A stretch of DNA of 32,000 bases from Methylophaga frappieri (lineage in GTDB: Bacteria > Pseudomonadota > Gammaproteobacteria > Nitrosococcales > Methylophagaceae), in contig NC_017856.1 of the NCBI RefSeq assembly GCF_000260965.1, forward strand, positions 2,280,001 through 2,312,000, given 5' to 3'. A program made the translations under genes and the position numbers. Under the pieces are notes generated by a model. The model searched no databases. It worked only from the letters and a program-made list of their open reading frames with translations, and was not told the DNA's origin. Shown piece by piece: positions 25,518-27,305 of the stretch (position 1 is the first letter of the stretch; the number at the start of each line of letters is the position of its first letter).

Positions 25518-25730
25518 ATGTCCGAACAATCTAAAACAATCACTATTGATGGCGTGAGCTACGAGTTAGACAACTTGTCTGAAGACGCTCGCGTGCAAAT
25601 TCACAATGTACAGTTAGCAGATAACGAGATTCAGCGTTTAAATGTCCAATTAGGAATGGCCCGCACTGCACGATCAACGTATGTTGCGACCTTGAAATCT
25701 CAGCTACCTGAAGACGTCAGCAAACACTAA
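25518..25730 (+). CDS. Small (70 aa) hypothetical protein, predicted helical/coiled, first gene of the hydroxylase-SapC operon
   Basis: It has a good RBS (GGAG, ~9 nt upstream), is hydrophilic and has no signal peptide. The segment NEIQRLNVQLGMARTARSTYVATLKSQL is amphipathic. I recognise no family with confidence. Confidence 0.55.
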   Translation: MSEQSKTITIDGVSYELDNLSEDARVQIHNVQLADNEIQRLNVQLGMARTARSTYVATLKSQLPEDVSKH

Positions 25731-25775
25731 TCCGCAGGCAATCAAACCTGGCAGTCTTCTTGATGATAAGGTGAC

Positions 25776-26447
25776 ATGATGAAACTGATTAGGCTCTATA
25801 CGGCTGAAAACGCGCAGCGTATTCTCGATGCAGCGCGTGAGCTTGAACTCAAGGATGGTCGGGAGACTGCCAAGGGCTACGCAAAGAATATTAAAAATAA
25901 TCTTCAGGCGGGCAGCTCAAACCCGAAAGCAGCGCCTTTGTTGGCACAAATTCAAAAGAATCTGTACGACGATGCGCGCTTTCGTTTTTTGACGTTTCCC
26001 AAACTGATATTGAGCTTAAGGTTTGCGCATTATCCGGCTGGTGGCAAATATGATTGGCATTTTGATAATGCGCATATGGATGCTCGCCGCGCGGATTTGA
26101 GTTTTACCCTGTTTTTAAATGACGATTATGAAGGGGGCGAACTCGAGATGGATTTCGGCCACTTCAAAAGCAGAGTGAAAGGAAAAGCGGGCGAAATTGT
26201 TATCTACGATACGGGTGTCCGTCATCGTGTTAATCCAGTAACCAAGGGCGAGCGATGGTGTCTGGTTGGCTGGGTTCATAGTTTGATTCCATTGCCTGCT
26301 GACCGTCGGATTGTGCAATTGCTTGGTGAAGAGATGCAGGCTGTCAGAAAAGCACGCGCGTCGGCTGCAGAGGATCAGGAAGGTGAGGATGGTCCTTCGG
26401 CCCTGCATGAAATTTATCAATATTTGTGCAGACGCTTTTCCGGTTAA
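25776..26447 (+). CDS. Fe(II)/2-oxoglutarate-dependent oxygenase, PKHD-type hydroxylase (PiuC/YbiX-like)
   Basis: 223 aa. Contains YPAGGKYDWHFDN (HxD facial triad), RADLSFTLFLNDDYEGGEL, the distal His in GVRHRV and KGERW..VGWV, colinear with the YbiX/PiuC family. Confidence 0.8.
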   Translation: MMKLIRLYTAENAQRILDAARELELKDGRETAKGYAKNIKNNLQAGSSNPKAAPLLAQIQKNLYDDARFRFLTFPKLILSLRFAHYPAGGKYDWHFDNAHMDARRADLSFTLFLNDDYEGGELEMDFGHFKSRVKGKAGEIVIYDTGVRHRVNPVTKGERWCLVGWVHSLIPLPADRRIVQLLGEEMQAVRKARASAAEDQEGEDGPSALHEIYQYLCRRFSG

Positions 26448-26477
26448 TTCAGATGCAATAGCGGAGGATCGAGAAAT

Positions 26478-27305
26478 ATGACCGAATCAAAGCAACCGCA
26501 CGTTTTCGCGATTGACAGTCAGCAACATGCTAAAGCCGGCTGGCAGCCGAGACATGGCTTTGAATTTGCCAAAACCTTTCACATCTCCCCGATTGTCGCT
26601 GATGAACTGGCGCATGTCATGGCGACCATGCCGGTGGCATTTATGCCGATCAAGCAAGGTGAGTCATCCCGCTGGTTAATGGTGGCCGTGTTGTCGCCTG
26701 TGCCAGGAAAAAATGATTTCCTACATCCCAATGGGCGTTGGCTGGGCGGTTATCTACCGGCGACCTTTCGGACTTATCCGTTCAAGATGATTCACACTCC
26801 TGAGGGCAAAAGGGTACTGGGCTTTGATAGTCGCAGTGACCGGTTTGTTGCGCAGGCAGAGTCCGGCGATCAGCGGTTTTTTGATGACAATGGGGCGTTG
26901 ACACCGCAAACAGAAAAAATTGTCCGTTTTCTGGAAGTGTATGAAAGCAGTCGTGATGTGACCGAAAAAGCGATTACCGCCTTGGCAGATGCCGGTATTT
27001 TGAAACCTTGGCGCACGATGTTGAAAAATCCGGAAGAAAACCCGGATTATTTGAAAGAGCTGTTTATCGTCGATGATAAAAAGCTCAAGGCATTGGCGCC
27101 GGATACGTTGGCGGCGTTGGCCAAATCCGGGGCGTTGGGGGTGGCGTATGGTCAATTACTGTCTTTACCGCGCCTATCGGTATTCAGAAAATTAACGGAA
27201 CTGCATAATGAAATCGCCAAGCAGCAACAGCCAGCCGCTGTAGATGAAGTTGATCTGGATGCGTTGTTTGGTGAGGATGGCGACGACACCTTTAAGTTTG
27301 ATTAA
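26478..27305 (+). CDS. SapC-family protein (function unknown)
   Basis: 275 aa. Contains H.KAGW.P...F.FAK......IVADEL......MPVAF....G..RW..VAVLS..PGKN.F..PNGRWLGGY.PA.FR.YPF, matching the conserved core of the SapC family, which is named after Campylobacter fetus sapC in the S-layer secretion locus. The C-terminus is acidic. Confidence 0.75.
   Translation: MTESKQPHVFAIDSQQHAKAGWQPRHGFEFAKTFHISPIVADELAHVMATMPVAFMPIKQGESSRWLMVAVLSPVPGKNDFLHPNGRWLGGYLPATFRTYPFKMIHTPEGKRVLGFDSRSDRFVAQAESGDQRFFDDNGALTPQTEKIVRFLEVYESSRDVTEKAITALADAGILKPWRTMLKNPEENPDYLKELFIVDDKKLKALAPDTLAALAKSGALGVAYGQLLSLPRLSVFRKLTELHNEIAKQQQPAAVDEVDLDALFGEDGDDTFKFD

Follow-up and report, generated by a model that had tools for sequence, protein, structure and literature searches.

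The SapC family has carried its name since the sap operon of Campylobacter fetus was described, yet it is still without a function. In C. fetus and Campylobacter rectus the sapCDEF genes adjoin surface-layer (S-layer) genes, and a link between SapC and type I secretion systems (T1SS) is already implicit in the Campylobacter naming. Our literature searches returned no assigned function for SapC and no systematic account of its connection with T1SS. A further surface-protein system of interest is that of Psh from Pseudomonas putida, a protein with repeats-in-toxin (RTX) and DUF4214 regions that is secreted by a T1SS, is encoded between O-antigen and T1SS genes and has been proposed to bind O-antigen. 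Here we describe a 32,000-nucleotide stretch of the Methylophaga frappieri genome (contig NC_017856.1, positions 2,280,001 to 2,312,000 of the forward strand; hereafter the window), in which consecutive genes for a small DUF6447 protein, a 2-oxoglutarate (2OG)-Fe(II) oxygenase and a SapC-family protein lie among genes for putative T1SS cargo. Comparison with related loci demonstrates that the genomic linkage of SapC, DUF6447, PrtD-type T1SS and giant surface cargo is solidly conserved. Based on this linkage, we consider it highly likely that SapC and DUF6447 are functionally tied to T1SS surface-protein systems.

SapC neighbourhoods were collected from 80 loci (one genome per species, selected by the motif GRWLGxY[VL]PA) and from 3 metagenome loci, with representatives of the Gamma-, Beta- and Alphaproteobacteria, the Desulfobacterota and the Acidobacteriota. 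These 83 loci were searched with the window proteins, and the counts derive from tblastn and hidden Markov model (HMM) matches; open reading frame (ORF) calling was crude in GC-rich loci and many of the sampled contigs were short. A HlyD gene was present within 10 kb of SapC in 25 of the 83 loci. Among the 38 loci that extend 8 kb or more in both directions, HlyD was found within the same distance in 14, corresponding to a binomial P of 2e-13 at an assumed chance rate of 2.5%, which was estimated from a few T1SS per 4-Mb genome. In 13 loci the genes for SapC, an ATP-binding cassette (ABC) transporter and HlyD follow one another in this order on one strand, with TolC next in 8 of the 13. All of the ABC genes tested (8/8) were PrtD-type, scoring 758-785 bits against TIGR01842 (cutoff 510). 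Matches of these transporters to the HlyB and LssB models begin near position 135, which indicates that they do not contain the N-terminal C39-like domain.

The genes around SapC also include those of presumed cargo. Relatives of the S-layer-like (DUF4214) proteins of the window were detected by tblastn near SapC in 17 of the 83 loci. Proteins encoded directly 5' of SapC are often very large, reaching about 3,300 amino acids, and a Pfam analysis of 48 upstream neighbours identified DUF4214 in 8 and RTX repeats in 3. At the C-termini of the large upstream proteins, an acidic or asparagine residue precedes hydrophobic residues (...DAVIFA, ...ADIIA, ...DILAAA), in the style of protease- and S-layer-type T1SS signals. 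Among 226 further neighbour ORFs, the commonest Pfam families were sugar-nucleotide enzymes, glycosyltransferases of families 2 and 4 (GT2/GT4), acyltransferase 3 (Acyl_transf_3), DUF4214, RTX and methyltransferases. The original prediction, which was made from the sequence of the window, held that the recurrence of SapC beside S-layer-like T1SS cargo argues for a real functional link, and the neighbourhood statistics support this recurrence.

The regular conserved partner of SapC is the DUF6447 protein. A DUF6447 gene is located within 3 kb of SapC in 20 of the 83 loci, and an HMM built in this study from the DUF6447 matches recovered 29 clear homologs in 21 SapC loci (E from 8e-20 to 3e-39). 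These relatives were located by tblastn and HMM searches of the fetched loci; a word-indexed search matched only the query itself. A reciprocal, DUF6447-seeded scan of metagenomes gave SapC HMM matches in 22 of 80 loci, with SapC within 400 nucleotides of the DUF6447 gene in 21 of the 80. SapC adjoined DUF6447 in 12 of the 35 loci where both flanks reach 1 kb or more and in 6 of the 12 where they reach 3 kb or more, in a sample that is skewed to Halomonas-type sequences and that was obtained with a scan pattern narrowed from a too-divergent alignment. In 5 other loci DUF6447 is positioned directly 5' of ABC and HlyD genes without SapC. The reciprocal adjacency, together with these 5 loci, points to a mutual link between SapC and DUF6447 and to a separate link of each with T1SS.

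Several variations on DUF6447 were encountered. Tandem arrays of 4-5 copies are present in some metagenome contigs (including L152, L153 and L095), and the domain also occurs at the N- or C-terminus of larger proteins lacking an assigned function (L057 12839-13423; L072 12320-13474). Some SapC loci (L003, L010, L018 and L069) contain, in place of DUF6447, tetratricopeptide repeat (TPR)-sulfotransferase genes and, beside SapC, a conserved protein of about 170 amino acids without a Pfam match (orf173), which was found in 8 loci.

Profile searches and structural modelling were used to characterize the two conserved proteins. The M. frappieri SapC protein matched PF07277 with 201.5 bits (cutoff 28.9), its residues 12-233 covering profile positions 1-217 of 220. 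The family is large, with 3,491 clusters at 50% identity (E up to 0.001), and the best non-self match of the M. frappieri protein is 49% identical. An AlphaFold2 model built with 12 aligned sequences had a mean predicted local distance difference test score (pLDDT) of 84.8 and a predicted template modelling score (pTM) of 0.80. In the model, a beta-rich N-terminal domain spans residues ~9-135 and is followed by a helical domain at 143-248; from about residue 250 onwards the chain is disordered up to the C-terminus, with the exception of a short predicted helix (260-264). Conservation was evaluated in 151 sequences, comprising the query and the top 150 cluster representatives. Residues H17, E43, F55, N79, G86, W88, Y92, P94, R98, P101 and F102 are kept in 88-100% of these.

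The acidic tail of the M. frappieri protein (window 27230-27302, residues ~250-275) ends in ...DLDALFGEDGDDTFKFD. In most of the 151 sequences the tail follows the consensus DLDxLFGE-(acidic)-DDxLxF and is located at the C-terminus or a few residues from it; a strict form of the pattern was matched by 89 of the 151, which is a lower bound. Docking peptides usually consist of an acidic stretch with a terminal aromatic residue carried on a flexible linker, as in the bacterial single-stranded DNA-binding protein (SSB). The SapC tail is similar in style to such peptides, namely the acidic ones at the C-termini of SSB and ribosomal stalk proteins; this is an analogy only. A SapC without the acidic tail was found in Neptuniibacter (L073 10001-12384), where it is encoded between a 2,947-amino-acid protein and a type VI secretion ImpA/VasJ gene. 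On account of this neighbourhood, tail-less SapC proteins may act in other contexts.

The M. frappieri DUF6447 protein (Q7C_2310) passed the PF20045 threshold marginally, with 27.8 bits against a cutoff of 27. Its single-sequence AlphaFold2 model (pLDDT 85) displays a beta-hairpin (residues 7-16) and one 40-residue helix (22-62). The protein has no signal peptide and its maximum 19-residue hydropathy is 0.34. The model has no structural neighbour in the PDB, and neither the SapC fold (Foldseek, best E = 0.69) nor the SapC sequence profile matched a PDB entry. Because these fold and sequence searches were empty, no function can be transferred to SapC or to DUF6447. Signal peptides and transmembrane segments are absent from the DUF6447 protein, the oxygenase and SapC alike (maximum 19-residue hydropathy no more than 1.18), and all three are cytoplasmic in character as judged from these sequence features.

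The features of the M. frappieri locus are as follows.
1..2843, + strand: T1SS genes, comprising the C-terminal end of the ABC ATPase (1-173, identified by translation), HlyD (174-1523, Pfam HlyD_3) and a TolC-like outer membrane efflux protein (1536-2843, Pfam OEP).
14745..22287, + strand: two S-layer-like DUF4214 paralogs, presumed T1SS cargo (Pfam DUF4214).
24594-25184: YceI gene between the glycosyltransferase family 41 (GT41) gene and the three-gene module; the product has a signal peptide.
25275..25517, + strand: structured leader with a terminal intrinsic-terminator hairpin at 25466-25495.
25518..25730, + strand: DUF6447 small protein, 70 amino acids (PF20045).
25776..26447, + strand: PiuC/YbiX-type (PKHD) 2OG-Fe(II) oxygenase, 223 amino acids (PF13640, NF003974).
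26478..27305, + strand: SapC-family protein, 275 amino acids (PF07277).
27368..28522, + strand: GT4 glycosyltransferase (Pfam Glycos_transf_1), with an ortholog at 12568-13716 of metagenome contig L001 (E = 6e-113).
28558..29766, + strand: trypsin-like protease with a Calx-beta domain (Pfam Trypsin, Calx-beta).
29940..32000, + strand, start coordinate approximate: start only of a giant LapA-like adhesin (translation, tandem-repeat finder).

The window opens with the ABC tail, HlyD and TolC-like genes, which are followed by a GT4 gene and a GDP-mannose dehydratase gene, the Wzm/Wzt O-antigen ABC exporter and 3 transferases. A second GDP-mannose dehydratase, an epimerase/reductase and a methyltransferase come next, then the 2 DUF4214 proteins, a GT41/TPR protein and YceI, and finally DUF6447, oxygenase, SapC, GT4, trypsin/Calx-beta and the LapA-like adhesin with its TPEP repeats. 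The original prediction had described a tightly spaced operon for a small protein, a PKHD-type hydroxylase and a SapC-family protein, each gene with its own ribosome-binding site, preceded by a terminator. Our analysis agrees with both the architecture and the identities: positions 25518-27305 contain 3 + strand ORFs with intergenic gaps of 45 and 30 nucleotides, and the products pass PF20045, NF003974 (152 bits) and PF07277. Shine-Dalgarno-like stretches precede each start, GGAG being located 8 nucleotides before the first ATG, AAGGTGA before the second start and GGAGGA 10 nucleotides before the third ATG. The predicted flanks, with DUF4214 and GT41 genes upstream and GT4, protease and adhesin genes downstream, were likewise found, and required the addition of the YceI gene between GT41 and the module.

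The three M. frappieri genes form a genuine unit that is probably co-transcribed. No terminator-like site comparable in strength to the hairpin at 25466-25495 was found 3' of the SapC, GT4 or trypsin/Calx-beta gene. With no terminator between SapC and the GT4 and protease genes, transcription probably continues past the three genes as a longer unit, and the GT4 gene is probably co-transcribed with SapC. A recent horizontal insertion of the three genes was considered and rejected, their GC content and third-position GC content (GC3) being near the window mean. A defence-system assignment was also rejected, as PADLOC yielded a generic 2OG match only. Elsewhere in the window the GDP-mannose 4,6-dehydratase gene is duplicated (3881-5036 and 11133-12288), and the copies are 97% identical over the 300 nucleotides compared, which begin about 80 nucleotides before the start codon and reach into the first part of the gene.

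The closest relative of the locus was found on L001, a 15.6-kb metagenome contig whose SapC is 48% identical to that of M. frappieri. The gene order of this contig is glycosyltransferase, DUF6447, ATP-grasp, 2OG oxygenase, SapC, Wzm, Wzt, methyltransferase, glycosyltransferases, GT4, trypsin/Calx and adhesin. The two loci jointly keep the leader of the module, the DUF6447 gene and, downstream, the genes for GT4 and the protease. The M. frappieri leader (25275-25517, about 240 nucleotides) aligns to L001:2441-2681, with identical blocks formed by GTGTTAAGGCCAA and the terminator arms. It is retained despite proteins that are only about 50% identical and despite a different upstream gene (YceI in M. 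frappieri, a glycosyltransferase in L001). The terminator hairpin has a 13-bp stem with 7 G-C pairs and a T tail, and far exceeds in strength the rest of the 9 terminator-like sites in 24300-28700. Its 3' end is located 22 nucleotides before the DUF6447 ATG and 280 nucleotides past the yceI stop codon. In L001 the hairpin is retained with one compensatory pair and ends right before the ribosome-binding site.

The leader RNA has a folding z-score of -4.69. A search of the window against Rfam gave no match at the gathering threshold, and assignment of the leader as a PyrR element was rejected on a sub-threshold match (21.5 bits against 54, E = 0.84). Outside M. frappieri, the leader box GTGTTAAGGCCAA was found in L001 only. 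The leader could be an attenuator or a small RNA.

The oxygenase matched 2OG-FeII_Oxy_3 (PF13640) with 63.7 bits and NCBIfam model NF003974 (PRK05467 group) above its cutoff of 143; the NCBI start is one codon later than ours, giving 222 amino acids. It matches PiuC in the PDB (9ghl, E = 2e-25), and residues H95, D97, H150 and R160 align to the metal- and 2OG-binding residues of this structure with the HxD...H...R set intact, so that the enzyme is predicted to be catalytically intact. It is not a YbiX ortholog, since the YbiX-specific model NF003972 scores 73.5 against a cutoff of 399. A PKHD_C domain (PF18331) was not detected, Pfam giving only PF13640 and PF03171; several more distant relatives of the oxygenase carry PF18331. 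Our literature search on PiuC biochemistry found nothing usable.

The original prediction had placed the hydroxylase in one operon with SapC and the small protein, and as a general module this grouping was not supported: the oxygenase accompanies SapC only in L001 (1 of 83 loci) and in L002, a 1.1-kb fragment with the same SapC, and the conserved partner is DUF6447, which the original prediction had called simply a small protein. Its other full-length relatives (33-34% identity) are phage genes located between the large terminase and the portal (L086 8001-8651; L087 2988-3644), and it matches the phage auxiliary family phrog_61 with E = 2e-37. As the pairing with SapC is limited to L001 and L002 and the other full-length relatives are phage-borne, we regard the oxygenase as a lineage-specific addition and not as part of the module core. 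Both oxygenase-bearing loci, M. frappieri and L001, encode an adhesin with a TPEP linker in the same position, and this co-location (2/2) is consistent with (TPEP)n as a candidate substrate. A separate relative of the oxygenase, from Sneathiella limimaris, is flanked by two secreted proteins that consist mostly of (GD)n and (GE)n repeats (L088 7098-7667, 8769-9314).

The presumed cargo of M. frappieri comprises the DUF4214 proteins, the protease and the adhesin. The two DUF4214 paralogs are 77% identical, have an N-terminal DUF4214 domain and share C-termini of the form ...NINLTGS..F.D.FGLT... The second paralog is broken into overlapping ORFs (18687-20090 and 19873-22287); relative to the first copy, the repeat spacing changes from 3942 to 3943 nucleotides, which indicates a 1-nucleotide frameshift. 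The split could represent a pseudogene, a sequencing error or phase variation. Neither the DUF4214 proteins nor the trypsin/Calx protein has a signal peptide. The protease ends in DDDQLIA, and on these two grounds it is a probable T1SS cargo; relatives occur in 7 of the 83 SapC loci and in 4 of the 80 DUF6447 loci. In Vreelandella titanicae (Halomonas group; L057 11049-12719) the protease domain carries 4 fused DUF4214 domains in place of Calx-beta. The M. frappieri adhesin contains about 20 TPEP repeats at 30459-30698 and shares its N-terminus and its TPEP linker with the adhesin of L001.

Taken as a whole, these data suggest a reading in which SapC and DUF6447 are cytoplasmic accessory factors of S-layer/adhesin-type T1SS and the oxygenase is a lineage-specific modifier acting before export; we regard this reading as evenly balanced between right and wrong. 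SapC would handle cargo, or dock on the inner-membrane ABC/HlyD complex, ahead of export, its globular body being tethered through a flexible linker to the acidic, aromatic C-terminal docking peptide (DLDxLFGE...DDxLxF-COOH). The tail may dock on the exporter or on a partner protein, and DUF6447 may serve as a helical partner or regulator. HlyB-type exporters bind unfolded cargo through a built-in C39-like domain, and PrtD-type exporters are without that domain. HasA, a PrtD-type substrate, needs a cytoplasmic chaperone. The missing C39-like domain and the HasA precedent make a separate cytoplasmic factor for very large cargo plausible, and SapC may supply to the PrtD-type exporter, in trans, a holding, targeting or secretion-control function. 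We offer the adaptor or chaperone mechanism itself only tentatively, as a possibility that falls short of even.

T1SS cargo is made in the cytoplasm and exits unfolded, and the oxygenase could thus modify a client before its export. The client would most likely be a (TPEP)n-linker proline of the adjacent adhesin, or else another local cargo or partner protein, although we remain doubtful that a protein cargo is the substrate at all. In its most elaborate form, the proposal would be a cytoplasmic line in which the oxygenase hydroxylates the (TPEP)n prolines, the adjacent GT41 and GT4 glycosylate the linker, and SapC and DUF6447 hold the unfolded cargo and deliver it to the PrtD-type exporter by means of the SapC tail. 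Such a line would be a bacterial equivalent of the hydroxyproline-O-glycosylation of plant extensins. This complete sequence of events is a long shot.

A number of observations weigh against an accessory role in protein export. The strongly conserved polar residues of SapC (H17, E43, N79, W88, Y92 and R98) could belong to the active site of an enzyme and not to the surface of a chaperone. The SapC sample was selected by one motif and describes one clade of the family only. Roughly 25 kb separate SapC from the T1SS genes in M. frappieri, and in L001 SapC is directly 5' of the Wzm/Wzt O-antigen exporter and not of a T1SS exporter. Of the 38 fully flanked loci, 14 have no HlyD, DUF4214 relative, protease or DUF6447 within 10 kb of SapC, and such marker-less loci hold sugar-nucleotide, sulfotransferase or methyltransferase genes instead. 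With regard to the oxygenase, X-Pro linkers are present in at least 5 loci that showed no hydroxylase, and a sugar-transfer-associated ATP-grasp gene lies beside the oxygenase in L001. The latter neighbour keeps a glycan substrate for this enzyme under consideration.

A different explanation is that the module acts on a glycan and not on the protein cargo: SapC, DUF6447 and the oxygenase would make, modify or export the O-antigen-type polysaccharide that anchors the S-layer. The oxygenase might, for example, hydroxylate an amino-acyl or acyl substituent that an ATP-grasp ligase has attached. The L001 arrangement, in which a glycosyltransferase gene, DUF6447, ATPgrasp_ST, the 2OG oxygenase and SapC lead into Wzm, Wzt, a methyltransferase and further glycosyltransferases, can be read in this way. 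So can the prevalence of sugar-nucleotide enzymes, GT2/GT4, Acyl_transf_3 and methyltransferases among the 226 unlabelled neighbours, the SapC loci that have sulfotransferase, nonribosomal peptide synthetase-like or uridine diphosphate-sugar genes with no adjacent T1SS, and the conserved polar residues if they make up an active site. However, the tightest and most repeated adjacency is that of SapC with a following PrtD-type T1SS ABC gene (the 13 loci described above) and with a preceding cargo gene, and the same is true of Campylobacter. O-antigen genes are, moreover, expected beside S-layer genes in any case. T1SS-secreted S-layer/DUF4214 proteins bind O-antigen, as proposed for Psh, and O-antigen neighbours therefore do not discriminate between a glycan and a protein target. 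We judge action on a glycan to be unlikely, though the likeliest of the alternatives.

It is also conceivable that SapC is itself exported by the T1SS, with its tail as the secretion signal, and that it helps to anchor or assemble the S-layer extracellularly. The protein lacks a signal peptide, its gene adjoins T1SS genes, and its conserved motif lies at the extreme C-terminus after a disordered linker, which is the usual site of a T1SS signal. In addition, the hydrophobic-F-G element of the tail is loosely like the D-V/I-F-G-L found near the C-termini of the M. frappieri cargo. The endings nevertheless differ: the SapC tail terminates in D-D-x-hydrophobic-x-F, and cargo of the same loci in D/N followed by 3-4 hydrophobic residues and often alanine. 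SapC contains no RTX repeats, and the conservation of its tail sequence across bacterial classes is what one would expect from a docking peptide rather than from a T1SS signal. Its place as the first gene of a secretion operon fits an accessory factor. Export of SapC consequently appears improbable.

The last alternative assigns the oxygenase and SapC to TonB-receptor-linked nutrient or iron uptake, with their position in this locus being incidental. SapC genes have been described beside TonB receptors in Xanthomonas or Caulobacter, and the original prediction cited hydroxylase, halogenase and TonB-receptor genes as SapC neighbours in other proteobacteria. The oxygenase does pass the threshold of the PRK05467 (PiuC/YbiX) group and matches PiuC structures, and, according to two reports, PiuC-like genes support iron uptake beside TonB receptors in Caulobacter (PMC12004947, PMC12004943). 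The original prediction had named linkage of SapC solely to TonB-receptor loci among the outcomes that would count against it, and this was not what the data gave: a 6-kb neighbourhood of SapC yielded no TonB receptor in this clade. Receptors are also missing from the top family lists for the 226 neighbours. Of 50 unlabelled ORFs of receptor size, only 2 have a single aromatic residue at the end, one being an autotransporter and the other an acyltransferase. No receptor was detected in the window or beside the three oxygenase relatives examined (P0022, P0026 and P0027); the Sneathiella relative likewise has none nearby. The leader and the DUF6447, GT4 and protease genes are, furthermore, conserved together with the oxygenase and SapC in L001. 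TonB-receptor linkage is accordingly rejected for this SapC clade, and a role of the oxygenase and SapC in nutrient or iron uptake is very improbable.

The results extend what the Campylobacter naming implied in several respects. The breadth of the SapC-T1SS link, the pairing with DUF6447 and the PrtD-type exporters in 8/8 tested loci are new here, as are the SapC tail motif, a SapC fold without a solved relative and the M. frappieri variant with its inserted PiuC-like oxygenase. At least one large SapC clade is linked to T1SS of the PrtD type and to their giant S-layer or adhesin cargo in Alpha-, Beta- and Gammaproteobacteria and in some other phyla. If SapC provides in trans the cargo handling that HlyB-type exporters have built in, it would fill a gap in the understanding of how giant proteins are fed to simpler exporters, and such a factor could help engineered secretion. 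The oxygenase is of narrower interest unless cargo hydroxylation is shown.

Comparison with characterized systems places the module among them in different ways. With PiuC of Pseudomonas aeruginosa and YbiX of Escherichia coli, the M. frappieri oxygenase shares the NF003974 family, the match to PDB 9ghl and the aligned HxD...H...R residues; unlike them, it has no adjacent TonB-dependent receptor gene (as in fiu-ybiX and piuA-piuC) and no detected PKHD_C. The prolyl 4-hydroxylases (P4H) of Paramecium bursaria chlorella virus 1 (PBCV-1) and of plant extensins, where O-glycosylation follows, act on X-Pro repeat proteins. The oxygenase belongs to the same broad P4H-like 2OG superfamily, and a (TPEP)n protein and GT41/GT4 enzymes are encoded next to it. 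It differs from the characterized P4H enzymes in being PiuC-like, and related loci that showed no hydroxylase also have X-Pro linkers.

HlyC (hlyCABD) and the SecB chaperone of HasA are cytoplasmic proteins, either encoded together with a T1SS or needed by it, that act on cargo before export, and they provide a functional analogy only for the proposed role of SapC. The operon positions of HlyC and SapC also agree, each gene coming first in its own operon (hlyCABD and sapCDEF). In sequence and fold SapC is unlike these factors, and its model matches nothing in the PDB, acyltransferase and SecB folds included. The logic of the P. putida Psh locus is that of the M. frappieri window, with a secreted surface protein, its own T1SS and a bound O-antigen; the preprint on Psh, by contrast, makes no mention of SapC, DUF6447 or a hydroxylase, and a further difference is the N-terminal placement of DUF4214 in the M. 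frappieri proteins.

The closest counterpart remains the sapCDEF system of C. fetus and C. rectus. The M. frappieri SapC gene departs from it in lying some 25 kb from the T1SS genes, after DUF6447 and a 2OG oxygenase and before GT4 and protease genes. In both settings, SapC is linked to a PrtD-type ABC transporter, a HlyD-type fusion protein and a TolC-type protein, with S-layer and GDP-mannose dehydratase genes nearby. The Campylobacter order of SapC, ABC, HlyD and, in part, TolC is the order found in the 13 proteobacterial loci, and the comparison with Campylobacter concerns gene order.

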